Positions 80 to 53,202 of a stretch of DNA of 64,000 nucleotides are shown piece after piece. This DNA is from a virus (Duplodnaviria; Caudoviricetes): IMG/VR virus record IMGVR_UViG_3300028833_000094, positions 32,001 through 96,000 of that record; one strand, written 5' to 3'. Numbering within the stretch: the stretch's first letter is position 1; each line of letters starts with the position of its first letter. Position numbers and translations under genes: made by a program. The notes below the pieces were generated by a model that ran no database searches, was not told where the DNA came from, and saw nothing but the letters and a program-made list of their open reading frames with translations.

Positions 80-460
80 TTAATCTTCTTCTGTACCATA
101 TCTAATGCATAAGATATAATCATCAAGATGCTTTTTTAGAATATGTCCAGGTATCTTACACCCTTGTAATATTCTCAATAGCTTTCTTCCTAAAACAGAT
201 GATTCATCTTCATACCTAAAATCTTCATCAATACTTTTGGTAAATCCAAGGAATGGTAAGATGATGGAGATAGTAATATAGTCATCATCATCTATGAAGT
301 TACACTCAATTTCTACAATAGGAAGGATAGAGGTAAAAGGACTTTCAAGTATTCCACTATATCCTACATATTTGTCAATATCATGAGGATCTTTCAACTT
401 TACATAGTCTTGGTCCTTATATATTACATTGAGAAGTTTTTCAATTTTCTTTTGTTCCAT
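80..460 (-). CDS. hypothetical protein
   Basis: 126-aa ORF in the leftward gene array, A-rich leader. Confidence 0.7.
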   Translation of the reverse strand: MEQKKIEKLLNVIYKDQDYVKLKDPHDIDKYVGYSGILESPFTSILPIVEIECNFIDDDDYITISIILPFLGFTKSIDEDFRYEDESSVLGRKLLRILQGCKIPGHILKKHLDDYILCIRYGTEED

Positions 461-524
461 AATTTAACTATACCAAATTTCTGGAAGTTCTGAGTCATCA
501 TAGAATGATGACCTGCTGTAAAGA

Positions 525-758
525 TTAAGCCACATCTTCATGGGCTTCCATACTTGAGAGATAACTGTCTGCTTCCTGACTCAGGAGATAATCCAAAGCA
601 TCTTGCTCTGTCATCTCATCCTGGAGAGTCTTTGTAATCAGACAATTCAGTTCATAGATACATTCTCCAAGAGCATCCCTGTAGGGCAGAGGATGGGTAG
701 TGTTACCCATACGCTCTGTCCACTGAGATATAAGTTTTTGCAAATCGGTAATCATCAT
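525..758 (-). CDS. hypothetical protein (acidic C-terminus)
   Basis: 77-aa ORF, start overlaps stop of upstream gene (ATGA). Confidence 0.7.
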   Translation of the reverse strand: MMITDLQKLISQWTERMGNTTHPLPYRDALGECIYELNCLITKTLQDEMTEQDALDYLLSQEADSYLSSMEAHEDVA

Positions 759-1069
759 AATCCTCTGATAACATTCAATAATCTGCGCCAGATAGATGAG
801 TTACTGTGTACACCCATACCATTCTTACGGTTCTTAGATACATGCTTTGCTGAAGCAGTAAAGAAGCAGAGGGATTCAGGTTTCTTGGACAACACTGTAT
901 ACCAGTGAGCCTGTACAGCCTGAGGAGTGCGCTGATATCCTGCATCATTGAGATGCTCAGACACCATCATGAAACACCTGTGAAGATTGTAGGGAGAGTT
1001 CTTCACATAGCGGAGTAACACTTGGTCTTCTTCAAAAGACCATCTTCTTTGATTTCTTCTTCTTTCCAT
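755..1069 (-). CDS. Myb/SANT-like helix-turn-helix protein
   Basis: RRWSFEEDQVLL matches the W-[ST]-x-E-E-D-x-x-L Myb start; RTPQAVQAHW matches the third helix R-[ST]-x-x-x-x-x-x-[RH]-W. Confidence 0.6.
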   Translation of the reverse strand: MERRRNQRRWSFEEDQVLLRYVKNSPYNLHRCFMMVSEHLNDAGYQRTPQAVQAHWYTVLSKKPESLCFFTASAKHVSKNRKNGMGVHSNSSIWRRLLNVIRGL

Positions 1070-1100
1070 TTTAATTATTTAAAAAATTAAACACTAAGTT

Positions 1101-1139
1101 TAAAAGAAATCCTACCCAGTCATCACGACTGAATAGGAT
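1101..1139 (-). terminator. intrinsic terminator with GUGAU loop
   Basis: minus strand ATCCTATTCAGTC-GTGAT-GACTGGGTAGGAT-TTCTTTT. Confidence 0.7.
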
Positions 1140-1250
1140 AAGGTGTAAGAAAAAATGTATAAAGAAATATTGAACCACGATTTACAACATTTTCTTACTA
1201 AAATGCACGTATTTAAATATAACAAAAAACCCTTTACACCGCTGTGTTTC
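1101..1250 (-). ncRNA. candidate small RNA (about 150 nt) with own promoter and terminator
   Basis: TATATTTG promoter element at 1256-1263 (-), U-rich body, terminator 1101-1139, no credible ORF. Confidence 0.45.
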
Positions 1251-1376
1251 AGGTGCAAATATATATATAAAGAATTTATGATTAACTGAGTTAAGGAACG
1301 TGCTTAGACTATCTAAAAGAAAAACCCCAATGCCAGAAAGACCTGACACTGGGGAATAAAAACAAAATGACAAAGA

Positions 1377-1475
1377 CTAAAAGTCTTTTAATTTACCAAC
1401 AATGTAATTGCCGATAGCAGCACCTATGATGATGGCTGCTGCAGCGAAAAGTACTGAAAAGAGAATGATTTTCAT
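1377..1475 (-). CDS. 32-aa single-pass membrane peptide (not in ORF track)
   Basis: MKIILFSVLFAAAAIIIGAAIGNYIVGKLKDF*; ATG overlaps TGA of the upstream gene. Confidence 0.65.
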   Translation of the reverse strand: MKIILFSVLFAAAAIIIGAAIGNYIVGKLKDF

Positions 1476-1708
1476 TGCTTATAGTAGCCTATATAGTTTT
1501 CATACTTAGGATTAGATGCAGAAAAGAAGCATCTTGCCATAATCTGAGCATTGGAATGATAGGATTTCTTCTTTCTCTGAGCCTTAATCTGGTTACTGAC
1601 CAGACGTTTCATTACTGGATTAAGTTCTGTACGGAAGGCTAAGAAGCACTTACCATTAAGTTCCAATTCTTTTTGAATGTCTTGGATTGCTAAATCTTTT
1701 GCTGACAT
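1472..1708 (-). CDS. hypothetical protein
   Basis: 78-aa ORF preceded by AACCCTTTAA leader motif. Confidence 0.7.
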   Translation of the reverse strand: MSAKDLAIQDIQKELELNGKCFLAFRTELNPVMKRLVSNQIKAQRKKKSYHSNAQIMARCFFSASNPKYENYIGYYKQ

Positions 1709-1854
1709 AATGTTAAATTTTAAAGGGTTTATAATTAAGTGAACTAAAATGCTGTATGAGAGGGTCAGATAAAAAAGAAGGAGAAGGAGAAGAAAGGAAT
1801 AATAATCCCTTCTTGCTCCCGCTCCTTATCTAACCCTTTAAATAACAATAATTG

Positions 1855-1993
1855 TGGGAATCAGGAGAATCGAACTCCTGTATAAGACCTACACAGTCCC
1901 TTCAGCTCAAGAAAACTTTTAAAGAGGCAGGACTGCTGTGACCTGCATTTCATACTTTTCTTGATTCAGTGTCTTATGCCACCGAGGATTCCC
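1855..1993 (-). ncRNA. tRNA-like RNA (139 nt): acceptor stem and T-arm, with a long helix replacing D and anticodon arms
   Basis: GGGAATC/GATTCCC-A acceptor; AGGAG-TTCGATT-CTCCT T-arm; nested helices ATAAGAC/GTCTTAT, TCAAGAAAA/TTTTCTTGA, GCAGG/CCTGC. Confidence 0.7.
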
Positions 1994-2007
1994 TTATAAA
2001 AATGGAG

Positions 2008-2079
2008 TAGTCCCAATGAGAATCGAACTCATATCTACTCTTTAGGAGAGAGTTATTCTATCCATTGAACTATGAGACC
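2008..2079 (-). tRNA. trnR: tRNA-Arg(CCT)
   Basis: GGTCTCA/TGGGACT acceptor, anticodon arm ACTCT-CTCCTAA-AGAGT, T-loop TTCGATT; AGG codons are common in this phage. Confidence 0.9.
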
Positions 2080-2323
2080 ATTTGCCCCACCGCTGTAGGG
2101 CTTTACTGCAATTTGTGAAATATGAAAAACTAAACCAATCGAAATTTAAATCAAGAAATATATGGCTGAAAATAATAATAAATTGCAGTAAGATGCCTTA
2201 TCTATTTTCACAAATAGAATAGGCTGGATAATTACACATATAAATGAAAAACACTTAAAGTTAGTCCTCAGCCTACTTATCACAAGCAAGCTGATGAATT
2301 TCGATTCAAGAAAACGCCTTAAT

Positions 2324-2479
2324 CTATACTATTCTATACTCATTCAGTAATTTAGGTTTCAGTTGGTATCTATCATTTGTATTAAAGGACTCCAACTTAG
2401 AATCATCTTCATCAAAGTCCATCCATTCAGTCCATTGTTTACCTTTTGGACCCATATATTCATATCTTTTCTGTATCAT
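2324..2479 (-). CDS. 51-aa hypothetical protein (not in ORF track)
   Basis: MIQKRYEYMGPKGKQWTEWMDFDEDD..EYRIV*, overlapping the end of the upstream gene. Confidence 0.6.
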   Translation of the reverse strand: MIQKRYEYMGPKGKQWTEWMDFDEDDSKLESFNTNDRYQLKPKLLNEYRIV

Positions 2480-2738
2480 TGCTTAATACATTATAGATTC
2501 TGATTAAATCTTTCTTATGCATATCATCAAATTCAACTGGCTCATTGAAGCCTTGAATATTGAAGTAGATAATTCCTTCAGAAGGAATCTGAAAAGCACC
2601 AGTCACTATAGGCATCTGAAGAGAACTGAGTCCCATTGCCTGCTCTTCGCCTATAACTATATTACAATGCATAGGCTTTTCTTCACAAGTATCCATCAGG
2701 ATAGCAGATAACTTGTGTCTTAGTTGTTCTTTTGTCAT
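2460..2738 (-). CDS. hypothetical protein
   Basis: 92-aa ORF, leader TAACCCTTTAAGATT-ATG. Confidence 0.75.
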   Translation of the reverse strand: MTKEQLRHKLSAILMDTCEEKPMHCNIVIGEEQAMGLSSLQMPIVTGAFQIPSEGIIYFNIQGFNEPVEFDDMHKKDLIRIYNVLSNDTEKI

Positions 2739-3424
2739 AATCTTAAAGGGTTAAAGTAGAGTAAAAAGGAAGGAGGACAGCCTAAGGAGATGCTATAATA
2801 AGCATGACTGTCCTTATCCTTCCAGAGAGACTTACTCCTTGTATTTCTTAAAGTAAAAGGAAAGGCAATTGCAAGGCTAAAGTACTTTCATTAATTAATA
2901 AGGGAAGTAAGCCTTGCTTGAGCCTTTCTTGGTTATATATCATTTTCCAGTTAATTGAGAAGTTATACTTTATACCAATGTATTTTGATTCGTATAAGGA
3001 CTCTATTGAGGGGAAATAGATTTGTCTTTTTGTAATAATTCCGTAAAAGGAAAACCAAAAATGAGATTTTCAGGAAATGAAAAGCCCCAAAATACCTTAG
3101 AAATAAGTATATGATATCTATATAGTGTGTAGATAAGGTGAGTGAAAAGTGTTATAGATTATGTGAATATTGAAGATTTGAGAGTCTTGAAAATAATGGT
3201 AAAGTGAGAGGGGAGGGTATTTTGTGTCCTTTTCCTCCACTAAATCATTTAATCTATATTACAAATAGACCATAATATGTTCTTTTTGTACGATTTCAAT
3301 ATTTATCATCTTTTTCTTATTTACACCTTATTATATATATAGAGGGCTAAGTCGATTGTCCCAAGGGCAAAAAATAAAATAAACAGTGGAATTAAGACCT
3401 TGAGGTAAGTCGCAAGGACCCTGA

Positions 3425-3463
3425 GAAAAAAATATAAAGGGGGTGGACATAGCCACTCCCCTT
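3425..3463 (-). terminator. intrinsic terminator
   Basis: minus strand AAGGGGAGTGG..CCACCCCCTT followed by TATATTTTTTT. Confidence 0.7.
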
Positions 3464-3485
3464 ATTGAAGTCAATCTACAAAGAC

Positions 3486-3887
3486 TTATCCACGCTTTGC
3501 CAGATACTCTTTCTTGGCATCTTCAGACTCCCATACATCATATCTCACAATGCTGGGCTGACCTGCCTTCTTCAGTTCCTGACCAAAGATGAGATTAATC
3601 TTAATCTTGTCACCTTCGTCATAACCATTCTGGACAGCCTTACCAGCCTTCAACTCAATGCTGGAACCATCCTTAAAGGGAATTGTAAGACGCAGAGATG
3701 TAGAACCATCACTGAACTCTGCAGAAGTAACTTCTGCTTCATCACCCTGGATGTCCTTGTAATTGAACATCTCTGTTGCTTCGCAGATTTCTTCAAGGGT
3801 AAATGCATCACCTGTGGGAACCCACTCTGACTTGTTGAACACTGAGTTGTTTGCTACTGCCAGGAAACTTTTGCTAATAGTTGCCAT
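3486..3887 (-). CDS. small beta-rich protein, paralog of 4726..5088
   Basis: shared MAT..VFNK..EW..TL.E..DG..L+++IP..DG..E.D.I pattern; biased codon use suggests high expression. Confidence 0.75.
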   Translation of the reverse strand: MATISKSFLAVANNSVFNKSEWVPTGDAFTLEEICEATEMFNYKDIQGDEAEVTSAEFSDGSTSLRLTIPFKDGSSIELKAGKAVQNGYDEGDKIKINLIFGQELKKAGQPSIVRYDVWESEDAKKEYLAKRG

Positions 3888-4080
3888 AATCTTTAAACTT
3901 TAAACTGTTAATAAATAAATGTGAACTGTGTGGGGAGACTAAGTCAAAGACTATCAATCTCCACCAAAAAAGGTAAGACGTGATATTTTGTTAAAGACAA
4001 GGACTATAACTTTAACTAAAGAAAGAAAATAAATAAAAGAAAGAAAGGTATAAATAAGTCGAAAATAAAAATGAAAAAAT

Positions 4081-4120
4081 AAAAAAAGGGAAATCTAACC
4101 CCAAGGCCAGACTTCCCTTC
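4081..4120 (-). terminator. intrinsic terminator
   Basis: minus strand AAGGGAAGTCTG..TAGATTTCCCTT-TTTTT. Confidence 0.7.
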
Positions 4121-4130
4121 TTTTTCTAAG

Positions 4131-4334
4131 TTACCATACTTCTACTACCGAATGATAATATCCATTTGATATTATTCGCCAATTTTCACCTGACTGAGGA
4201 GCCCTCACATCATGCAAAGCTTCCCTTATGCCAGGAGCAAGTGTCCATAAGAAAGTTTCATTAGGAACAATCTTTGCATCTGGATATTTCTCCAGCCATT
4301 TCTCAGGAGAGAAATAATGTTCTATATACACCAT
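4131..4334 (-). CDS. hypothetical protein
   Basis: 67-aa ORF directly after upstream stop. Confidence 0.65.
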   Translation of the reverse strand: MVYIEHYFSPEKWLEKYPDAKIVPNETFLWTLAPGIREALHDVRAPQSGENWRIISNGYYHSVVEVW

Positions 4335-4335
4335 A

Positions 4336-4665
4336 TTAATCTAAAATCCAAGTTTTGTTACTGAATATATTATCTTCCCATTCATCAGACAGATGATATG
4401 TTTCCACAGTTACACTATGTAACCATCCATTAATGTTGATATCAGAGGTTATCTGAAGAGTCCTATGATTCTCATCAAGCCATTTTGGATCAGAATATCT
4501 AGCATATCTGCCCATTCTGTTATTAGCAGCCTCATCATAGATACTTTGCATCAACTGCTGAGCAGTCTCTAAATCTTCAACAAGTCTTACAAGAAATGAT
4601 GATTCACTTCCTAACTCATGCTTATGGTGGCATGTAATAACATACCATAATTTCTTTTCTTCCAT
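4336..4665 (-). CDS. hypothetical protein (probable start MEEKK at 4665)
   Basis: ATG at 4665 follows the TAACCCTTTAA leader motif. Confidence 0.7.
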   Translation of the reverse strand: MEEKKLWYVITCHHKHELGSESSFLVRLVEDLETAQQLMQSIYDEAANNRMGRYARYSDPKWLDENHRTLQITSDININGWLHSVTVETYHLSDEWEDNIFSNKTWILD

Positions 4666-4725
4666 ATTATTGTATATTAAAGGGTTAGTAAATGCCCTGC
4701 CTGTCACACAGGGCTATATAATATC

Positions 4726-5088
4726 TTAGATACACTCACCTGTTATATATCCATGAGACTTACCCATAGCCTTTTCCACACAGAATTTAACAGTCTTCAG
4801 GTCAATCTCATCATCTTCCTCAAAGTCATTCTCATAGGAGAGGTCAAACTCCCCTTCACCATCCTCCAGAGGGATAGACATCTTCAAGAAGATGCCCCCA
4901 TCCTTACGTTCTTTGGCAATTACTGTAGGATTGCCAGTTACATGAGCAAGTGCAGGGTCAATCAGCTCTGCATACTCACTGAGAGTCAGAGTCATAGACT
5001 CATCAGTTTTCCACTCACGCTTGATATACTGAGCCTTGTTGAACACTTCCTTAAGTTCAGCTACTTTCTTTGCACTAAATGTTGCCAT
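4726..5088 (-). CDS. small beta-rich acidic protein, paralog of 3486..3887
   Basis: protein motif similarity plus shared DNA words (cttgttgaacact; gttgccataat). Confidence 0.75.
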   Translation of the reverse strand: MATFSAKKVAELKEVFNKAQYIKREWKTDESMTLTLSEYAELIDPALAHVTGNPTVIAKERKDGGIFLKMSIPLEDGEGEFDLSYENDFEEDDEIDLKTVKFCVEKAMGKSHGYITGECI

Positions 5089-5213
5089 AATACAAAACCT
5101 TCACATACAACTAGGCACAATGATTTAGCCCAGAGCCTCTTAGCGGAAGGTACTGGCTTTTGGTTGTTAATATAAAGGGTTATTGTGTTTCTCAGAGTGT
5201 AGATGTTAAGGGA

Positions 5214-5330
5214 TCAGATGTCCCACTCATCAAGTGCTTCTTCTGGAGTGTATCCATGATCCATACACCAGATTACTTCTGCCTGCAGATTATATTTCTC
5301 TGCTTTAGCAATTGCTTCTTCTCTTGTCAT
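5214..5330 (-). CDS. 38-aa protein (not in ORF track) with GYTPEEALDEWDI motif
   Basis: MTREEAIAKAEKYNLQAEVIWCMDHGYTPEEALDEWDI*, starts 3 nt after upstream stop. Confidence 0.7.
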   Translation of the reverse strand: MTREEAIAKAEKYNLQAEVIWCMDHGYTPEEALDEWDI

Positions 5331-5332
5331 AG

Positions 5333-5668
5333 TTATAACCTGTTGAATTCTTCTAAGTCAAAATTACTGTAGCTCACTTTCCTAAGAGGTTTATTGAACC
5401 ACAGATGCAGCAAATACCAGTTAACCTGGGCTCTCAGTCTCTGCTTTCTGAGATAATCATCAGATACCTCAATGCCTGAGAGAGCCTGATCCATAGCATC
5501 AATATATCTGCCTTCCTCTCTTTTAGCCCTCTCTTTGATGAAGGCATAAAGATCCAACACATCACGCTTGCCTCCTTGTTTTCTGTAATCCTCAAAGGAG
5601 TGGATAAGGATGCTCTCTTCTACTTTACCTTCAAAGAGAACGTTCTGATCTAATACTTGCATAATCAA
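5333..5668 (-). CDS. hypothetical protein
   Basis: about 110-aa ORF in array. Confidence 0.7.
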   Translation of the reverse strand: MIMQVLDQNVLFEGKVEESILIHSFEDYRKQGGKRDVLDLYAFIKERAKREEGRYIDAMDQALSGIEVSDDYLRKQRLRAQVNWYLLHLWFNKPLRKVSYSNFDLEEFNRL

Positions 5669-5691
5669 TACTCTTTAATCATTGTTATATT

Positions 5692-5889
5692 CTAATCATT
5701 AATAGGAAGATGCTCCGCTCTAGTCTTAAAAACATACTTCACACCTATATTACTCCAGTACTGCTGTGCTTTACGCCCTGCAGTTTGAGCATCTTGTTTG
5801 GTTTTATAAAACTCACCTTCAAGATAATCTTCATATTCAAAGTTACCATTATTGTAGTCAAACTTGAATAATAGTCTATATACTTTCAT
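5692..5889 (-). CDS. hypothetical protein
   Basis: 65-aa ORF, tightly packed. Confidence 0.65.
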   Translation of the reverse strand: MKVYRLLFKFDYNNGNFEYEDYLEGEFYKTKQDAQTAGRKAQQYWSNIGVKYVFKTRAEHLPIND

Positions 5890-5890
5890 C

Positions 5891-6154
5891 TTAGTATTCT
5901 TTAATTATTGTTGTTTTACCTGTATCAAGAAGCTGCTGAATTCTGAGTGTAGACTCATCAGCACTGTCAGATAGACTATCAATAAGGTCAGCAACCTCAC
6001 CAATAGTAGCACAATCATTCCAATCAATCTCCATCGGAGGATTAGGTAACATACCTTCTTCAGTTGCAAGGTCTTCCTTGGTCTTACACCATGTGAATGC
6101 CAAGAAGCAAGTACTATTCTTCCTTACTTCCAATACTTCTCTAAAATCTGCCAT
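5891..6154 (-). CDS. hypothetical protein
   Basis: 87-aa ORF, tightly packed. Confidence 0.7.
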   Translation of the reverse strand: MADFREVLEVRKNSTCFLAFTWCKTKEDLATEEGMLPNPPMEIDWNDCATIGEVADLIDSLSDSADESTLRIQQLLDTGKTTIIKEY

Positions 6155-6165
6155 AATTTTACTTG

Positions 6166-6561
6166 TTATTTGAATAATCCTTTTACTATAATACCCTCTA
6201 TTTCTGCTTCTGCTTGGTCTAAATATTTGTAATACAGAGTCCTATCAGTTCTTCTGAGAGCTGCATGTTTTCTTCTCAATAATTCTCCCACAGTGTGGAA
6301 GCCATTATCTTCCTCCCATGCTACATAGTACACATTACCTATCATAGTAAGTTTAGAGCTCAGAAAGAACAATCCAGAACCTTCCTCAAGAGTGACAAAG
6401 AGTTTTATCCAACCAGGATGCCTATCTCCATAAGGAGCAATCCTAACACTCTCAACATTGTAATCTACAACCTTGTCACCAGGATATACCTTATGACCAT
6501 TACTTGCAAATGCATCAATAGCTGCATTCAAAATGTCAATTACTAATTCTTTCGTTTCCAT
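6166..6561 (-). CDS. hypothetical protein (probable start METKE)
   Basis: ORF in array; ATG just after upstream TGA. Confidence 0.7.
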   Translation of the reverse strand: METKELVIDILNAAIDAFASNGHKVYPGDKVVDYNVESVRIAPYGDRHPGWIKLFVTLEEGSGLFFLSSKLTMIGNVYYVAWEEDNGFHTVGELLRRKHAALRRTDRTLYYKYLDQAEAEIEGIIVKGLFK

Positions 6562-6566
6562 AATAT

Positions 6567-6689
6567 TCAATTGTTAAATGATTTGATTTTCCAATATTGA
6601 TTCCCATAAGCAAACCTGTAATTGTCTGCCTGCTTCCAAGAAGGAAAGCTACCTATGTAGCCCCCTTCAGAGTCATAGAGTCTATACAT
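6567..6689 (-). CDS. 40-aa hypothetical protein (not in ORF track)
   Basis: MYRLYDSEGGYIGSFPSWKQADNYRFAYGNQYWKIKSFNN*; TAATG overlap with upstream stop. Confidence 0.65.
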   Translation of the reverse strand: MYRLYDSEGGYIGSFPSWKQADNYRFAYGNQYWKIKSFNN

Positions 6690-7039
6690 TATAATTCCTC
6701 CTCAACCTGTTTCTTGATAAAGACAACCTTTGGAACTTCTATGCAGCTAGTCTTAATAAACCGTACTCTGCTAATATCAGAGGCAATAATGTCAATTGTG
6801 GAACTCTCATAATACCCAGCAGGAAATTTCTTATTACCTACTACTGGCTGGATAGTCAGCTTATAAGTGTCCTTACAATATGCTCCAAGAATAGAGCACA
6901 CCTGTTCTTCAGAAAGCCTTGTTTCAAGCAGAGTATCAATAGCTCTCTGCTGTTCATGAGTCATAGGATCCTCATAGGATACCTTAACGATGAAATACTT
7001 TCTTTCCAGTCTCTGTGAATTGAATCTTACTGTAATCAT
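6689..7039 (-). CDS. hypothetical protein
   Basis: 116-aa ORF after TAACCCTTTAA leader. Confidence 0.7.
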   Translation of the reverse strand: MITVRFNSQRLERKYFIVKVSYEDPMTHEQQRAIDTLLETRLSEEQVCSILGAYCKDTYKLTIQPVVGNKKFPAGYYESSTIDIIASDISRVRFIKTSCIEVPKVVFIKKQVEEEL

Positions 7040-7065
7040 GATTTTATTATTTTAAAGGGTTAATA

Positions 7066-7224
7066 CTATTTATTCTTTAAAGGTTTGAACTCAGTGGTTT
7101 CCCACATTTTTCTTTTAAGCTCCCAGTAAGCTCTATAACCTTCTGAGAGTGTAGAAAACTGATGCCTAGTACTAGCTGACATCTTACCAGCTTTCCAATT
7201 CTCGATAAAATTCTTGATTTTCAT
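7066..7224 (-). CDS. hypothetical protein (probable start MKIKN at 7224)
   Basis: ATG follows TAACCCTTTAA leader. Confidence 0.65.
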   Translation of the reverse strand: MKIKNFIENWKAGKMSASTRHQFSTLSEGYRAYWELKRKMWETTEFKPLKNK

Positions 7225-7292
7225 AATTCTGTTTTGTTTTAAAGGGTTATAGTGCAGCTCACTTTGTATAAGGTGGAGCTGCATGACCTTGA

Positions 7293-7454
7293 TTAGTCTT
7301 CAGAATAATCTTCTTCCTTAATCATGTAAGCATGAGTATTCTTCCACTGTGTTTCAATGTAAGACTCAGCTTCTTCTCTAGTCTCAAAAGGCATGTGGTC
7401 CTCAAACCATTTTTCTGTACCTTTCAGTCTGCTGTAAACCTGAAATAGTATCAT
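7293..7454 (-). CDS. 53-aa hypothetical protein (not in ORF track)
   Basis: MILFQVYSRLKGTEKWFEDHMPFETREEAESYIETQW..SED*, starts just after upstream stop. Confidence 0.65.
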   Translation of the reverse strand: MILFQVYSRLKGTEKWFEDHMPFETREEAESYIETQWKNTHAYMIKEEDYSED

Positions 7455-7455
7455 A

Positions 7456-7674
7456 TTACATTCTCATTATTTGAGTAATAGTGAAACTCGTATAGAGCTT
7501 CATCAATCTAACAAACTCTTCCTTAGCAGCCTGCCTATTAGGACAAGTAATCCTAATGTTTGCACTCTTACTGAAGAAGCACACTGAATATGTGCTCTTG
7601 TAATGATTCTCATCTTTACGGATGGTGATGGTAGCACTCTCGGTCTTTACCATCTTATAGCTTCTAATTTTCAT
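7456..7674 (-). CDS. hypothetical protein
   Basis: 72-aa ORF, tightly packed. Confidence 0.65.
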   Translation of the reverse strand: MKIRSYKMVKTESATITIRKDENHYKSTYSVCFFSKSANIRITCPNRQAAKEEFVRLMKLYTSFTITQIMRM

Positions 7675-7675
7675 A

Positions 7676-7870
7676 TTATTTGTTATTTAAATTGTTAGTA
7701 ATAGTTTCATCAATGAGAGCAATCATTCCAGCTCCCAAGAACAGAGTAACAACAACACCATAGATGCTATTGGAGAACAGTGCAGTAATGATAGTAGCCA
7801 TACTGCCAGATACCAGAACAGCTCCCCTGAGGAGAGCTGCCTGTAATGATTTGCTTATAATTCTTTTCAT
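7676..7870 (-). CDS. small membrane protein (2 TM)
   Basis: two hydrophobic segments. Confidence 0.65.
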   Translation of the reverse strand: MKRIISKSLQAALLRGAVLVSGSMATIITALFSNSIYGVVVTLFLGAGMIALIDETITNNLNNK

Positions 7871-7880
7871 ATTATTAAGA

Positions 7881-8261
7881 TTATTCCCAACCCATCATTC
7901 TCGCATGATTGTACCAAGCAAGCTCTTGGGCCATCCATTCTCTGTACTCTTCCTCATATTCCAGGTCATTTATCATTTGCTGGTATGCTTCAGCAGAATA
8001 ATATTCTAACATAGTTTCCATATCAAAGATAGACATACCTACTTCATTACAGAAGTCTACAGCATCTACTCTTTCACAGAAGAGTATTACATCATCAACA
8101 TCCCAGTCAGTACTGTTGTCTTGATAGATAGAAAGAACTGGAATCAGATTATTGCCCTTGACAGCATACTGCACATTGGCAGTGCATTTGTAGGGATTAC
8201 CATTGACCTGCTTAATCAAATCCAGAATAAACTGGTCATCATAATTTGTTAAATTTACCAT
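7881..8261 (-). CDS. acidic hypothetical protein
   Basis: 126-aa ORF, D/E-rich C-terminus. Confidence 0.7.
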   Translation of the reverse strand: MVNLTNYDDQFILDLIKQVNGNPYKCTANVQYAVKGNNLIPVLSIYQDNSTDWDVDDVILFCERVDAVDFCNEVGMSIFDMETMLEYYSAEAYQQMINDLEYEEEYREWMAQELAWYNHARMMGWE

Positions 8262-8278
8262 TTTCTTTATTATTTATA

Positions 8279-8536
8279 TTATAAGAATGCAGCAATCATT
8301 ATAGCCTGAATAGGTGTCCAAGCCATTAAGAATATACAAATATTAGTTACCCATTCCTTCTGATTATCAATGAAGGCAATAGGCAATAGCAGAGAGACAG
8401 CAACAATAGAGAGTATTACACTGGATACAATCTCCCTATTGTAAGGTCTTAACACACCAGCAGCAAATGCTGCAATACCCAACATTAGGGCTGTACCAAT
8501 TATGGCAAGCCCTAATACTTTCATGAATTCTTTCAT
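8279..8536 (-). CDS. small membrane protein (3 TM)
   Basis: three hydrophobic segments; TAATG overlap with upstream stop. Confidence 0.7.
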   Translation of the reverse strand: MKEFMKVLGLAIIGTALMLGIAAFAAGVLRPYNREIVSSVILSIVAVSLLLPIAFIDNQKEWVTNICIFLMAWTPIQAIMIAAFL

Positions 8537-8973
8537 TAGATACAATATTTGAGTGAATAGATAGTCTCATCATAGGCTTCCTGCATCTCAGCGAGGTAAT
8601 CCTGATAGTGTTCCCATTCCCACTCCTTAGAGGGAATATCCCATTCATTACAGGCCTCCTCAAAGGAATGCCCTAATCTCATCCAAGCCTCAATCTGAGG
8701 TCTGTAAGTGAGTGCCCAATGCTCCAGAGATTCATCATTCAGAGTCTGATAGTCAGAGACAAGCAGTCTCATCCAAATCTTATCAACATCCCAGAGTGAG
8801 ATAGAAAGAAGGGAATCTTCAGGGTCATCTACTATTCCACAGCAGTCAGCACCAACTGCTATATCATTGTTGATCATCTTCTGGATAGCTTCCAGAGCTA
8901 CTGTTGCTGGCATGTCATTCCAGCCAAGTTTCTTGACAATCAGCATAATTGCTGAGAACTCTTGTTTGTTCAT
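8536..8973 (-). CDS. acidic hypothetical protein, first gene of the leftward array
   Basis: 145-aa ORF containing GHSFEEACNEWDI, similar to the 38-aa gene at 5214..5330. Confidence 0.75.
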   Translation of the reverse strand: MNKQEFSAIMLIVKKLGWNDMPATVALEAIQKMINNDIAVGADCCGIVDDPEDSLLSISLWDVDKIWMRLLVSDYQTLNDESLEHWALTYRPQIEAWMRLGHSFEEACNEWDIPSKEWEWEHYQDYLAEMQEAYDETIYSLKYCI

Positions 8974-11431: not shown

Positions 11432-12616
11432 TTATCTATTTGAATTTTCTGTTTTTGTTTTTCCTCCTGCCTGTGAAGGTGGGAGGTTTTTAATGGCTTC
11501 CACTACTGTCTCATCCAATAGCTTGGCATATACCTGTTCTGTAATCCTGGTAGAGGAGTGACCACATATTCTGGATACTATCTGCATGGGTACCCCTTCA
11601 TTTAATAATAAGGTAGCTCCTGTATGTCTTGCCCAATGTGTACTCAGGGGTTTGTCTATTCCAGATGATTGTGCTACTACCTTCAGGTACTCATTGTACT
11701 TGACATTGGATATAATGGGTAGTCTGCCATTATATTTCATCAGGATATTCCAGGCAGGGGATAGGATAGGGATGGTAAAGGGTTTATCTGTCTTCAGCCT
11801 GTGTCCAGTATAGACCTTCATATCTTTAATCTCTTGTACAGATTTTATATTAAAGTATCTCAAATCCGAATAGCTTAGACAGGTATAGGTTTGGAAAATA
11901 AACACATCTCTGACTTTCTCCAGACTTTCAGTAGGCATCTTAGAGGTTTTTATCTTATGGAATTCTTCTGGAGTCAGGCATTTCTCAAGACTCTTTATGT
12001 CCCTGCCTTTATCTATACAGATATTCTTATAGGGATTCTTAGTCATGTGACCTTCATTAATAGCATCCAAGATGACAGAATTAAGATGCCTGTGGTAATT
12101 ATGCCATTTAGTATAGAGACACATTCCCTTACTTGCCAGGTAATTGTCAAAAGCTATAAGATTTAATTCATTTACATCCTTGAATCTCTTAATACCTCCC
12201 CATTCTTTAAAGACTTTCAGAAACAAGTTGTACCTGTCTATGCTTCTTGGAGCCTTACCATATTTCCTTATATCAAATCTCTGATGACAATAATCCAGGA
12301 AATTAATATTCTTTCTCTGAATCTTTAACCTGGCTGGTATGGAGAATATATCTATATTCCCCTCATTGGTCATATCAAGGAGTATCTGCCTTACATCAGT
12401 AAGCATCTTATCCAGAGTACTGCTAATCTGAAGGATATCAGGACAATTCAGGATCTTCCCTTTCTTCCACTGGTTTATATACAGCATGATACCAGTGGCA
12501 ATGTACTTTTGCTTATAGTTATAGGTAATTCTCATCTCTACTGCAGACTTTACAGTAAGGGATGCATTCTTTCTTCTGTTGAACACAAAAGTGATTTGAG
12601 GCTGTTTGTTAATCAT
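11432..12616 (-). CDS. int: Bacteroidota-type tyrosine integrase (arm-binding, SAM-like core-binding and catalytic domains)
   Basis: N-terminal VEMRITYN..KYIATGI arm domain; RDVFIFQTYTCLSYSDL (Ser in place of first Arg, as in IntDOT-like enzymes), HWARHT, GHSS, catalytic Tyr in VYAK. Confidence 0.92.
   Translation of the reverse strand: MINKQPQITFVFNRRKNASLTVKSAVEMRITYNYKQKYIATGIMLYINQWKKGKILNCPDILQISSTLDKMLTDVRQILLDMTNEGNIDIFSIPARLKIQRKNINFLDYCHQRFDIRKYGKAPRSIDRYNLFLKVFKEWGGIKRFKDVNELNLIAFDNYLASKGMCLYTKWHNYHRHLNSVILDAINEGHMTKNPYKNICIDKGRDIKSLEKCLTPEEFHKIKTSKMPTESLEKVRDVFIFQTYTCLSYSDLRYFNIKSVQEIKDMKVYTGHRLKTDKPFTIPILSPAWNILMKYNGRLPIISNVKYNEYLKVVAQSSGIDKPLSTHWARHTGATLLLNEGVPMQIVSRICGHSSTRITEQVYAKLLDETVVEAIKNLPPSQAGGKTKTENSNR
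11463..11491 (+). terminator. intrinsic terminator with GUGA loop, overlapping the integrase 3' end
   Basis: CCTCCTGCCT-GTGA-AGGTGGGAGG-TTTTT. Confidence 0.75.
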
Positions 12617-12716
12617 ATTTAAAAAGTAAAATAGGTAGTTAACTTCTCTTTTGAAGAAGCTTAGTGTAATAAATAAAAAAGTAGGGTGTAATAAATATGT
12701 AATAAATTAAGGGCTA

Positions 12717-12751
12717 AAAAATGGATGATAGGCCTGTATTTCCTACCATCC
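12717..12751 (-). terminator. terminator after tRNA-Lys
   Basis: minus strand GGATGGTAGG-N9-CCTATCATCC-ATTTTT. Confidence 0.65.
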
Positions 12752-12764
12752 CTTGGGTTCTTAG

Positions 12765-12837
12765 TACACCCGCAGGGGTTCGAACCCTGGACACCCTGAT
12801 TAAGAGTCAGGTGCTCTACCAACTGAGCTACGGGTGC
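12765..12837 (-). tRNA. trnK: tRNA-Lys(CTT)
   Basis: GCACCCG/CGGGTGT acceptor, D-arm GCTC-AGTTGGTA-GAGC, anticodon arm CCTGA-CTCTTAA-TCAGG, T-loop TTCGAAC; GC-rich and host-like. Confidence 0.95.
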
Positions 12838-29705: not shown

Positions 29706-32700
29706 ATGAAAAGAGTAGAATCACATATATTCCAGGGAATGCAGAGAGATGTGAGTATCTCTAAGCAGCAGCCTCAGTTTCTATGGGATGCAGTAAATAT
29801 CAGACTGACAGCCAGAGAAGGTGATACCTTGATGAGTATTACCAATGAGAAGGGTTCTGTTGAAAGTGGTATATATTGTACAGGCTCCTATATGGGACAT
29901 TGTGTCATAGGTAATAACCTTGTAGTGTTCACTACAGATGATGGATATGATTATATCTACAGAATAACAAAGATGGAAGAAGGTTTCTTCAAAAAGAAGA
30001 AACTTTATGGTGGAAGTATAGGGCAACCAAGTCTTGGTTTTGACCCATCATATCCTCTTCAAACACTGGGTGTGTATGAGAATGAACATATCCAAAAAGT
30101 ATATTGGACAGATGGAATTAATCAGCCAAGAGTTATCAATATTGTAAAAGACCTTCTTAATTCTGCTGCAACTGAATATTACAATGAAAAGTCTTTTGAT
30201 TTTGTCCCTGAGATGCAGCTTGATGATTCTATTCATGTTAAAAAACTTAGTGACAGCAGCGGAAGCTTTCCCTCAGGTGTAATTCAGTATGCTGTTACCT
30301 ATTATAATAAATATGGGCAGCAGAGTAATATCAGCTGTGTATCTCCTCTGATACCTATCTCATTTTTTGGAAGAGCTGGAAGTCCTGAAGAAAAAGTAAG
30401 TAATTCATTTAGAATTGTAATTAATAATCCTGATACTACTTTTGAATATTTAAGACTTTACTCTATATTTAGAAGTAGCCTGAACGGTACTCCTATTTGT
30501 AAGAGAGTAGAAGATGTAAAATTAGGAGATGGAGGAACCAGCGGTACTTACTATAAAATGGAAACTTCTGGAACTATTATTTCTAATTATTTCTGGGTTA
30601 CAGGCGCTTACCAGGCTACTGAAAGTAATGGAGACCCTTTTAATCAATCTGGATTTGTATATACTGAGCATGTTCCCTATGTTAATAATGGCTCTTTTTT
30701 CCATATACAAAAGGGCAGCAGTACAGAACACCTAGTAATTAAAATAAAACAACAAAATAATACATATAAATATATTACCTGGGGTGATGCTACAGAAATT
30801 TTTATATCTAAAAACTCCTTAGCTGGAGGTGCTGGTACAGCATATTATGTTGTAGGAGCTGATGGCATGAATGAGACAGGTGATTTTAGAAATGCAGCGA
30901 ATTTATTTATATCCACAGAAGAAATACAATATGTAGAGAAAAGAACTGTGGAGAATGTTACTATTACCGATAATGGTAGTATTGGAGAAAATATTGATCC
31001 ACAGGAGTTGTTTTATATTGGAGGTGATGAAATCGTTGCAGAAACTATAGAATCTAAAGATGGAACTTTGTTTTTGGGTAATATTGTACTAAAGCAAGCT
31101 CAAATAGAAAGTTTAAAGAGTAGTATTAAAAATGGTGTAACTATTACTAACAACAATACAAGACAAGTTTCCAGAGCTATTGCTTTAAATAGTAATAATT
31201 ATAAATGGGGAAGTTCTCTAAATTCAACGGGAGCTGATGATTATGCTACTAATCCTGCAGGATTTAAGTATGGGGAGCATTACAGACTTGGTGTTCAATT
31301 TCAATACAAGAATGGAAAATGGAGTGAGCCTGTATATATACCTAATATGTCTGGTAATACTGATATAGGAAGTTATATATGTAATGAAAATCCTGAATAT
31401 AATGAAAGTTCTAGTTCAAGTAGTTCTGAGGTATATAACATCCCATGTTTTAAAGGTGTTTTAAGTAGTGATATTAGGATTGCTTTACAGAGTAAAGGAT
31501 ATAAAAGAGTAAGAGGAGTTGTGGTTTTTCCTACAACTTCAGATAGACTTATTCTGGCACAGGGAATATTAAATCCTACTGTGTCTTGTGTTACTGCTCA
31601 TGATCAACATTCTCCTGATTATCAAAGTTCTTGGTTTTTCAGACCTTGGATCTCTTCAAGTTTTAATAATGATAGTAATATATTAGAAGGAGCTGTAGTT
31701 GAATGGGAACACAATACTAAGTTATTTGGTTTCAATGACAGAGGTGCAGAAATACAGGGATTGCCAGTAAACTATACCAATTGGAGTATGATGGGCAACA
31801 CTATTAATTTTGGAGGAGGGCCTTTTAGTCCTGTTTATTTTGATAATGTTAATATTGGAAATAAAAATAATCCCAAATATGTGACAGTTAGACAAGATTT
31901 AGCAGATAGTGTTTTCTATGTAGACCAACAATATGTTACTATGCATTCTCCTGAATTTGAGTTTGAGGATTCCTTGAAGAATTTAGATTTCATAGAAACA
32001 TCTCTTAGGAAACGAGGATATGTACAGTTTAATGCAAATGTTGGAGATATATTCATAGAAACATCTACTCCTCCCATCGGTAAAAGCAGCACAGGGTTTG
32101 TACGTAAAGTTATGAACTGGGGAGGAACTGGGGCTTGTAGAAGACTATGTGCTGGATTATTCTATAATGATTGGCTTGTAGATGAAAATGTCAATGACAA
32201 TAAGAATCTTTATGCTGAATTCCCACATCAAGGCTATGAGGTAGGATTTATGGTTTATCCCTGGAATAAATCAGGTTCTTTGAATAATGACTGTAACAGA
32301 CCAGCAGAAGCTGGGGTGAGAAGTGCTGTGCTAAAAAGAAAGATTATTTCTAATATGCTTTACAGTAGGCAGACTTCTTTTGTATCTAGTTCAGATATTC
32401 CCATGCCATCTACATCTACTCCGAAGTTATTTGATTTGGATCAGATAGGTCTTGTGAAATTAGGAGGTAATACAAATTATTATGGTAATATAGATACCTT
32501 ATTAGGAGCTATGGCACCTTTTGGTTCTATTATTAGTACTGGAGAAAATATATGGAAAATAAATAAGAGTGACTATAACGATATGAAAGAATATGGTTCT
32601 GGGCAATATAAGCCTACAGAAGATTATATGTCGTATAGTACTCATATTTTTAATTCCCGTAAAAATTACTTTTGGAAAGGAGTAGAAAAAGGGTTTGAGC

Positions 32701-52066: not shown

Positions 52067-52433
52067 GCAAGGAATTTCTCAAAAATGGAAAGATAGATTC
52101 CAGTACGGAGCAGCTGGGTTTTTGATAATTACGGCAGTTACATTGGCCTTTGTCTCCTTTATTATCACCCTGACAGTAGGAGCAGGAGTGATAGCATGGG
52201 GAGGTCTGTCAATGGGAACTGCCTTAACGTTGATAGGTGGTGGAATGTACTTCCATAATCAACTGGTCACTTTTGAAACCAATGCCAACAGGAAGATGGA
52301 AGAAGTGACAACTCATGTAGAAAAGGAGATTAGAAGGATGAATCAGAAGCCCAGCAGGTATTCAAGAATGTCTCCTGAAATGCCAGAGAAAGATTACTTT
52401 GACCCAGAAGAGCAAGACTTAGATGGACAGTAA
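52047..52433 (+). CDS. probable holin
   Basis: two TM helices, charged C-terminus, overlaps amidase start. Confidence 0.6.
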   Translation: MTVNAIEQGISQKWKDRFQYGAAGFLIITAVTLAFVSFIITLTVGAGVIAWGGLSMGTALTLIGGGMYFHNQLVTFETNANRKMEEVTTHVEKEIRRMNQKPSRYSRMSPEMPEKDYFDPEEQDLDGQ

Positions 52434-53073
52434 AAGCAATTTCATTATTATATTAGGTACAGCTCACAGGATGAGAGAGCCAGGGAAACAGTCTCCTGAT
52501 GGCAGGTTAAAGGAGTGTATCTATTCAAGGGAAATTGCTTCAGAAGTAGCAGCTAAGCTCAGAGCTTATGGTTATAAGGTGGAGGTAGACTATATGCCAT
52601 TGGACTTACCAAAGACTATGCAGTCACCTAACTATAAGCAGGAGCGGAGTAATGAGCTGGCTATGAGAGTTAACTATGTAAATGAGGTATGTAGGCAGCA
52701 TGGAGCTAAGAATGTGCTGTATGTGAGTATTCATGTTAATGCCATAGGTAATGATGGTAAGTGGCACAATGCCTGTGGGTGGCAGGTGAATGTCAGTAAC
52801 AATGCCTCACAGAACAGTAAGAGACTTGCAGAATGTTTCTTTGATGCAGCCTCAGCTCATGGTTTGAAGACAAGGAAGCCTACAGCAACTCAGAAATATT
52901 GGCCTCAAAGTCTTTATGTATTGAACAATACCAAATGTCCTGCTGTCCTTACAGAGAATCTATTCCAGGATAATAAGCAGGATACAGAATATCTTTTGTC
53001 AGATGTAGGGAAGCATCAGATAGAGAGAATCCATGTAGAAGGAATTATTAGTTATCTAAATAATAGGGTGTAA
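52423..53073 (+). CDS. N-acetylmuramoyl-L-alanine amidase (Amidase_3) endolysin
   Basis: IILGTAH..GKQSPDG..E; VSIHVNA; PAVLTEN Zn and catalytic motifs. Confidence 0.88.
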   Translation: MDSKSNFIIILGTAHRMREPGKQSPDGRLKECIYSREIASEVAAKLRAYGYKVEVDYMPLDLPKTMQSPNYKQERSNELAMRVNYVNEVCRQHGAKNVLYVSIHVNAIGNDGKWHNACGWQVNVSNNASQNSKRLAECFFDAASAHGLKTRKPTATQKYWPQSLYVLNNTKCPAVLTENLFQDNKQDTEYLLSDVGKHQIERIHVEGIISYLNNRV

Positions 53074-53171
53074 TTGTTGTTTTTTTGAAAGTTAGTTAGT
53101 AATGTGGTGATTGATTAGTTTTTCATTAATTGATTAAATTTTCATTAGTTAGAAATTAGATTAAACATTGT

Positions 53172-53202
53172 AAAAGGGAGGCTGTGAAGTTTCCCTTTTT
53201 TA
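53172..53202 (+). terminator. intrinsic terminator with GUGA loop
   Basis: AAAAGGGAGGCT-GTGA-AGTTTCCCTTTT-TT. Confidence 0.75.

Follow-up and report, generated by a model that had tools for sequence, protein, structure and literature searches.

What is the long non-coding stretch that precedes the tRNA-Arg(CCU) gene of a crAss-like phage: a regulator of other mRNAs, a promoter, or a structured part of the tRNA transcript itself? The DNA analysed here, called the window, is 64,000 nt long and corresponds to bases 32001-96000 of a 116,467-bp virus record. The major head protein of the phage is ~62% identical to those of IAS virus and of Bacteroides phage crAss001, and both the large terminase and the major head protein are named by PHROGs. 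These proteins place the source, from gut or rumen, among the crAss-like phages (order Crassvirales). Crassvirales are among the most abundant viruses of the gut. To our knowledge, the mode of expression of their tRNAs has not been studied, and their abundant early non-coding RNAs are unexplained. Such RNAs, the function of which is unknown, have been described in the crAss-like phage phi14:2 (bioRxiv 10.1101/2020.03.07.982082).

Genomic context of the leader

The region 80-8973 is packed with small minus-strand genes, and the stretch in question (2080-2323, hereafter the leader) resides inside this early-looking module, on the same strand as tRNA-Arg and directly 5' of it, as is proper of a tRNA 5' leader or of an operon spacer (Table 1). 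A terminator scan detected no hairpin followed by a U-tract in 2080-2323, which does not classify, on this definition, as an intrinsic terminator. The long hairpin found at the other end of the RNA cluster probably terminates the cluster. The leader is non-coding, since 1-2-nt indels occur within it in the close relatives L010 and L013. On the plus strand, the ATGs at 2122, 2162, 2244 and 2294 open frames of 3, 9, 4 and 18 codons, and indels occur there in relatives; the view of the earlier note that these mimics of gene starts lead to no credible ORF is thus sustained.

Among the covariance models of Rfam 15, only those of the two tRNAs pass the gathering score in the window. Extending the search to E values up to 10 added, in 2080-2323, a sole match to DLEU2_4 (16 bits, E 2.5), and nothing meaningful. 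Hammerhead and other known ribozymes, as well as riboswitches, were ruled out, the leader having no Rfam match of these kinds.

Table 1. Features of the leader and its surroundings, with positions in the window
Feature	Position	Strand	Remarks
92-aa ORF	2738-2460	-	Upstream neighbour
51-codon ORF	2324-2479	-	The leader starts after its stop codon; ORF conserved in L010 and L013
Leader	2323-2080	-	244 nt without credible ORF, between the 51-codon ORF and tRNA-Arg(CCU)
H1, type-1 GNRA hairpin	2268-2294	-	GUGAU-loop hairpin at 2269-2293; lower stem, then UUGCUU-GUGA(U)-AAGUAG; 11 bp including 2 G·U pairs
Linker M1	2225-2267	-	UUUUUCAU at 2251-2244, then UUAUAUGUGUAAUUAU; partly homologous to linkers in L012/L024 and L014
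H2, type-2 GNRA hairpin	2195-2224	-	Apex CUAUUU-GUGA-AAAUAG, 2x2 internal loop; ends 3 nt before the clamp 5' arm
Clamp 5' arm	2180-2191	-	UUACUGCAAUUU
Clamp-enclosed segment	2115-2179	-	65 nt, 78% A+T; holds UUUUCAGCCAU (2172-2162) and UAGUUUUUCAU (2132-2122)
Clamp 3' arm	2103-2114	-	AAAUUGCAGUAA; ends 1 nt before the AGCG hairpin
AGCG-loop hairpin	2084-2101	-	7 bp; AAAU (4-nt linker) separates it from the mature tRNA 5' end
tRNA-Arg(CCU)	2007-2079	-	Intron-less allele
tRNA-like RNA	1855-1994	-	140 nt; perfect acceptor stem and T arm, hypervariable 16-25-nt insert; same RNA cluster
Long hairpin with U-tract	1761-1836	-	Next ORF downstream

Two members of the cluster deserve mention on their own. 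The acceptor stem of the tRNA-like RNA (1855-1994, minus strand) measures 7 bp, the first 39 nt at the 5' side are invariant among relatives, and ARAGORN makes no call, even when introns are searched for. The 3' part of the homologue in L013 gives a weak match to cyano_tmRNA (22.9 bits). In L024 the tRNA-like RNA is cleanly missing, and tRNA-Arg is joined to the sequence normally located 3' of the tRNA-like RNA. Pairing of the hypervariable insert with the leader of the same locus was considered and discarded, since cognate pairs are no better than non-cognate ones. As to tRNA-Arg(CCU), in L013 (about 1950-2460, minus strand), L014 and L016 the anticodon loop hosts an insertion of ~600-750 nt between positions 35 and 36, which gives a weak full-length match to Intron_gpI (18.9 bits, E 0.02, to be compared with a gathering score of 50).

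Related loci and a constant order of elements

A DNA similarity search against 50,697 phage records returned the tRNA as the sole match, and neither a relative of the 92-aa neighbour ORF nor the exact H2 pattern was found in IMG/VR. Related loci were reached by a protein search, which provided 27 homologues of the 92-aa neighbour and then the contigs encoding them, and by a second route, in which the conserved, invariant 5' half of the tRNA-like RNA was used as query. Seven non-redundant loci were thereby obtained, which fall into five lineages: the window with L013 and L010; L012, L016 and L024; L014; L008 and L015; L003. In L019, L022 and L023 the neighbouring gene is present and the tRNA locus is absent.

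Throughout the seven loci and five lineages the elements follow one another in a constant order, one or more GNRA hairpins being followed by a long-range helix (the clamp), a hairpin with an AGNG loop, and tRNA-Arg(CCU). The linker between AGNG hairpin and tRNA is A/U-rich and spans 4-7 nt, the first base of which is always A. Downstream of tRNA-Arg, a further GNRA hairpin with UUUU is usually found 3-5 nt before the tRNA-like RNA, and a terminator hairpin comes last; type-1 hairpins with UUUU reside at this distance, 5' of the tRNA-like RNA, in 8 relatives. Hairpins are located 4-12 nt upstream of the tRNAs also in cr128_1, a distant crAss-like phage. Hairpins are thus conserved and the linkers between them vary across relatives, as had been proposed from the window sequence.

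A conserved hairpin of ~85 nt resides upstream of the tRNA leader in L003 (about 4230-4320), L008 (about 1260-1345) and L015. Its 3' arm holds CUCUUUUUAACAA, which resembles the boxA of rRNA operon antitermination and is here paired. No counterpart of this CUCUUUUUAACAA hairpin was found in the window.

Hairpin families and overall fold

The minus-strand RNA of the leader folds at -57.8 kcal/mol (z -2.87), a value equalled by none of 200 shuffles; the fold of the plus strand is weaker (-43.3, z -2.29). Together with the covariation described below and the indels of close relatives, this substantiates the notion, already put forward in the earlier note, that the stretch is a non-coding, structured minus-strand RNA. 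The hairpins and the 12-bp stem that had been drawn, four structures in all, were recovered at the same positions.

H1 belongs to a family of hairpins (type 1, UUGCYU-GUGA(U)-ARGUAG) that counts 15 copies, all on the sense strand and confined to this RNA cluster. In the alignment of the family 96% of cells are paired, and compensatory changes are found in 5 of the 11 pairs. Of 14 copies, 13 retain the U·G wobble and 13 the G·U wobble, and an A-to-G change in L013 lets the pairing survive only as G·U. Because wobble pairs would be mismatches on the opposite strand, type-1 helices act as minus-strand RNA. At the position of H2, relatives carry hairpins that either fit the type-2 pattern YUAUU-GUGA-AAUAC, with a conserved C·C mismatch, or feature GCGA or GGGA loops. 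The C·C mismatch is found in the copies of four relatives, and corresponds to the internal loop of H2; the lower stem covaries. In both families apexes and non-canonical features, namely the wobbles of type 1 and the C·C of type 2, are conserved, while lower stems covary. H1 and H2 lack U-tracts in the window, whereas the homologous hairpins in relatives carry UUUU(U). Only ~16 GUGA hairpins occur genome-wide, and since some are ordinary terminators, a GUGA loop is not diagnostic by itself.

In an alignment of eight sequences the AGNG hairpin is 100% paired, 4 of the 7 pairs show compensatory changes, and the loop is AGCG, AGUG or AGAG. A second AGCG hairpin has been identified in the same genome, 28 kb away (G000 5793-5776), 4 nt before another structured RNA. 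The alignments indicate that the leader is a structured RNA, the helices of which are kept by compensatory changes in independent lineages.

The long-range clamp

In the window the clamp is a perfect 12-bp stem, matched by 0 of 500 shuffles. A perfect Watson-Crick inverted repeat of 9-13 bp is found in 7 of 7 loci, where it ends 0-3 nt before the AGNG hairpin and encloses 48-100 nt with an A+T content of 64-78%. Each of the five lineages has its own clamp sequence; the five are mutually unrelated, and for each the probability is at or below 0.004 (P<=0.004, at most 2 of 500 shuffles). In contrast to the neighbouring hairpins, clamp helices contain no G·U pairs. With such a composition, a DNA-level constraint, a recent origin or frequent replacement would account for the repeat as well as an RNA helix does. 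Conserved alternative pairings, of the kind used by switches, were also sought: the window offers two of 10 nt, neither of which is found in relatives.

The U-rich CAU motif and complementarity to gene starts

Occurrences of the U-rich CAU motif, which had been predicted to recur in relatives, were counted in 3.9 kb of noncoding tRNA-cluster sequence from the seven loci, and compared with 300 shuffles. The sense strand holds 27 TTCAT (11.3±3.1 expected) and 7 TTTTTCAT (0.9 expected), and 0 of 300 shuffles reach either figure. The reverse complements of TTCAT and TTTTTCAT are not enriched in the same noncoding clusters. The motif does recur, therefore, and is enriched on the sense strand only. 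Several TTCAT copies occupy homologous positions in different lineages, so that the enrichment is in part due to shared ancestry and the events are not independent; the conserved core is just TTCAT[AT][AT], the extended context not being conserved. Over all the intergenic regions of the phage the bias between sense and antisense is weak (19 vs 14), which ties the TTCAT enrichment to the tRNA leaders. In the noncoding clusters the sense strand is poor in ATG (46 vs 65.9±6.8 expected), as one would predict for an RNA exposed to ribosomes which do not use Shine-Dalgarno sites. The TTCAT segments are conserved linker modules, and may be either relics or variants of a -7 promoter box, or a site of protein binding.

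In the earlier note these segments were the guides of a multi-guide antisense cassette occluding start codons, a claim that the duplex energies do not favour. Scored by RNAduplex against 142 start regions of the phage, none of the four modules outperforms dinucleotide shuffles or windows internal to coding sequence, and the energy of module M1 is worse than that of all 40 shuffles. Six relatives, each compared with its own gene starts (2 to 27 per relative), show no excess complementarity; a 19-nt match in L016 was disregarded, as the gene start concerned is probably an ORF-calling artefact, an antisense frame within the leader. The forecast for related phages combined conserved hairpins, variable guides and a retained CAU. 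Hairpins, linkers and CAU behave as foreseen, but retention fails for the module AAAUUCAU, which precedes H1 and is lost in the near-identical relative L013. ATGAAAAA serves as a generic start in this phage: 6 of the 142 called genes have it, and 33 of 142 have ATGAA. One perfect complement of 14 nt was found, between UUUUUCAUAUUUCA and the -6 to +8 segment of an early gene that encodes 70 aa (G000 30677-30889). A complement of this length is reached by 3.6% of shuffles (P 0.036) and by 0 of 200 internal-window sets. This match is the single borderline positive, and hints at a possible role in trans. A homologue of the 70-aa target was not found in the relatives' loci examined, the record of one relative being searched. 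The anti-start-codon pattern is mostly explained by the generic gene start ATGAAAAA and by a promoter-like box.

A probable cis-acting leader and its rivals

Seen as a whole, the leader is best described as a transcribed, structured 5' leader, or intercistronic spacer, of the operon of tRNA-Arg and tRNA-like RNA, acting in cis as RNA punctuation. In this interpretation our confidence is evenly balanced. What is firmer is that minus-strand RNA helices are, judging from the comparison of lineages, under selection, and that their order and their spacing from the tRNA 5' end are constant. According to the preferred reading, the upstream small ORFs and the leader would be co-transcribed, and the clamp and the adjacent AGNG hairpin would stack into one helical block, leaving a 4-7-nt A/U-rich single strand before the site of RNase P cleavage. 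The block may shield the folding of the tRNA from the AU-rich spacer and, once cleavage has occurred, may protect the upstream RNA from exonucleases by capping its 3' end. GNRA hairpins would stabilise or mark RNA ends, and those followed by a U-tract in relatives may work as leaky terminators, setting the output of tRNA and tRNA-like RNA. For H1 and H2 of the window a terminator role would be deduced solely from the homologues. A purely structural leader leaves the strand-specific enrichment of TTCAT not explained.

It is unlikely that the AT-rich segment enclosed by the clamp is the promoter of the tRNA, TAGTTTTTCAT being a variant of the Bacteroidota -7 box and the inverted repeat acting on DNA, for example by supercoil-dependent extrusion; the UUUUUCAU modules would then be promoter boxes rather than RNA guides. 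Bacteroidota promoters carry TTTG at -33 and TAnnTTTG at -7, the phage's own late promoters read TAyyTTTGCA(G/T), and TAGTTTTTCAT (2132-2122) is one base off TAnnTTTGCAT, G being changed to T, with CTTG 19 nt upstream. TAnnTTTTCAT occurs 7 times in the genome, and 4 copies are intergenic and sense, although such sequence makes up only ~4% of the search space. A similar box with one more T, TATTTTTTTCAT, is located 22 nt before the second AGCG hairpin, and in L003, L008 and L015 the box TAWATTTGCA is found without mismatch 256-288 nt 5' of the tRNA. The Watson-Crick pairing of clamps points in the same direction, and promoters upstream of tRNAs have been reported in 12 of 14 crAss-like phages (bioRxiv 10.1101/2020.03.07.982082). 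However, the G of the -7 box, replaced in the leader, is kept in 20 of the 20 listed intergenic sense TAnnTTTG boxes of the phage, and the 130 nt that immediately precede the hairpin hold 11 near-consensus boxes, no significant excess over the 7.4 of shuffles (P 0.12). The distance from box to hairpin varies among lineages from 18 to >50 nt, and the neighbouring hairpins are clearly RNA-level. No site in the leader matches in full the Bacteroidota sigma-A promoter, defined by TAnnTTTG at -7 and TTTG ~19-21 nt upstream: the best boxes, TAGTTTTT and TAAATTTC, agree at 5 of 6 positions at -7 and at 3 of 4 at -33. A promoter inside the clamp, taken as a general rule, was not significant and was dropped. 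We know of no definition of the early promoters of the crAss virion RNA polymerase. A variant in which the repeat works on DNA to serve this enzyme is very unlikely: negative supercoiling would melt the AT-rich segment, the arms would pair intrastrand, and the TAnnTTTTCAT box would be shown single-stranded to the polymerase, a device that would share its principle, though not its construction, with the hairpin promoters of phage N4. In vitro, the crAss enzyme transcribes single-stranded templates only (bioRxiv 10.1101/2020.03.07.982082).

In a weakened version of the antisense model, which we regard as quite unlikely, RNase P would free a stable small RNA from the leader, with H1 as 5' cap and the AGCG hairpin as 3' cap, and UUCAU would pair in trans with A-rich starts devoid of Shine-Dalgarno sites. 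tRNA spacers are known to give rise to regulators, such as E. coli 3'ETS-leuZ, and binding of small RNAs to start regions is known from Bacteroides. Like 3'ETS-leuZ, the leader is a tRNA-precursor spacer with exposed U-rich segments, and its terminal hairpins would stabilise such an RNA; the restriction of TTCAT enrichment to the sense strand and the 14-nt complement to the start of the 70-aa gene speak for the model as well. In contrast to 3'ETS-leuZ and to small RNAs pairing at gene starts, seed complementarity in the leader, the 14-nt match apart, does not exceed that of composition-matched controls. The duplex energies of all four modules are no better than those of controls, relatives give no signal, the motif context is unconserved beyond the TTCAT core, one module is lost in L013, the 8-nt complement is a generic gene start, and two modules are enclosed by the clamp and may be poorly accessible. 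Alternatively, the GNRA apexes may bind a phage or host protein, much as boxB, a GNRA-like pentaloop, is bound by lambda N, so that the leader would be a cis attenuator or antiterminator controlling read-through into the genes of tRNA and tRNA-like RNA. The conservation of apexes, wobbles and C·C mismatch against covarying lower stems is in line with this possibility, as are the GUGAU pentaloop variant and the many homologues with U-tracts directly before the next RNA gene. Yet no candidate binding protein was identified, the 10-nt alternative pairing of the window is absent in relatives, none other being conserved, and at other genomic sites ordinary terminators have GUGA loops too; protein-controlled read-through is to our mind quite unlikely. 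That the leader is a chance product of an AT-rich spacer, merely separating genes, is hardly credible. The region is AT-rich, and in sequence of this kind short inverted repeats and boxes that resemble promoters are frequent. This view is contradicted by the shuffle tests, by covariation and by an element order that does not change across five lineages.

Relation to known systems

In the tRNA cluster of phage T4, tRNAs are made together with the small stable RNAs species 1 and 2 (rnaC, rnaD), and are cut out by RNase P. The locus described here is similar in being a phage operon of tRNA and structured non-coding RNA, with tRNA-Arg and the 140-nt tRNA-like RNA placed behind structured spacers. 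It differs in having no relationship to the T4 RNAs by sequence or in Rfam, and nothing equivalent to its hairpin families, clamp and AGNG hairpin is described for T4. In the leaders of rRNA and tRNA operons long-range helices and RNase III processing stems adjoin the ends of mature RNAs, and the clamp stacked on the 7-bp hairpin would likewise amount to ~17-21 bp directly beside a mature RNA end. The clamp, however, encloses an AU-rich spacer and not a mature RNA, and a phage-encoded RNase III was looked for in this phage and is absent. Substrates of yeast Rnt1p carry AGNN tetraloops, the N4 virion RNA polymerase uses hairpin promoters, and lambda N recognizes the boxB hairpin. The likeness to these systems is one of shape only, and consists of conserved GNRA or GNRA-like pentaloop apexes and of a helix of set length closed by a tetraloop of AGNN type (AGCG, AGUG, AGAG). 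Unlike in N4, G·U pairs argue for RNA hairpins in the leader, not for DNA hairpins.

The elements of the leader match no described family, and are akin to the structured spacers and accompanying RNAs found in tRNA operons of phages. The locus offers a compact set of elements supported by covariation: two GNRA hairpin families, a clamp, and an AGNN-type hairpin at a constant spacing from the site of RNase P cleavage. All of them are searchable in other phages, and can be tested for a role in tRNA maturation, attenuation or protein binding. A word of caution applies to scans of AT-rich Bacteroidota phages, as tempting anti-start-codon patterns may have a generic origin.

Similar units elsewhere in the genome

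A smaller version of the leader layout lies outside the window, at 5660-5860 of the minus strand of the record (G000:C1; 2160-2360 in L017). In order, it comprises a CCC-GUGA-GGG mini-hairpin, UUAUUUUUUUCAU, the AGCG hairpin with compensatory changes, a 4-nt linker, and a structured RNA of ~105 nt (UGGGGA...UCCCCA), for which Rfam gives no match. Within the window, an exact TATATTTG -7 box is found in 1101-1270 (minus strand), with an ACAC-AGCG-GUGU mini-hairpin 8 nt downstream, and then a U-rich body. At the 3' end the terminator scan detected a 13-bp hairpin with GUGAU loop and U-tract, ~40 nt before the start codon of the next gene; this unit could be a small RNA or an attenuating leader. 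On the late strand, a further unit in the style of the leader follows the gene 52423-53073: at 53116-53202 (plus strand) two TAnnTTTTCAT boxes, 19 nt apart, precede a 14-bp hairpin with GUGA loop and U-tract.

At several sites of the plus strand between 9835 and 64649, host-type promoters of late genes share the extended -7 box TAyyTTTGCA(G/T), with TTTG ~19 nt upstream, and are nearly absent from the early module on the minus strand. Upstream of the 92-aa ORF, the interval 2739-3485 (minus strand) extends over 747 nt without any ORF of at least 45 codons, and harbors several perfect and imperfect inverted repeats, as well as a terminator-like hairpin after the gene 3486-3887. A tyrosine-integrase-like gene (11432-12837; PHROG 1, E 8e-36), unusual for a crAss-like phage, adjoins tRNA-Lys(CUU). 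Finally, the same sequence surrounds a TATATTTG box at both ends of the record (G000:C1 1-130 and 116340-116467, boxes at positions 52 and 116388), which points to a terminal repeat or to a circularly permuted assembly.
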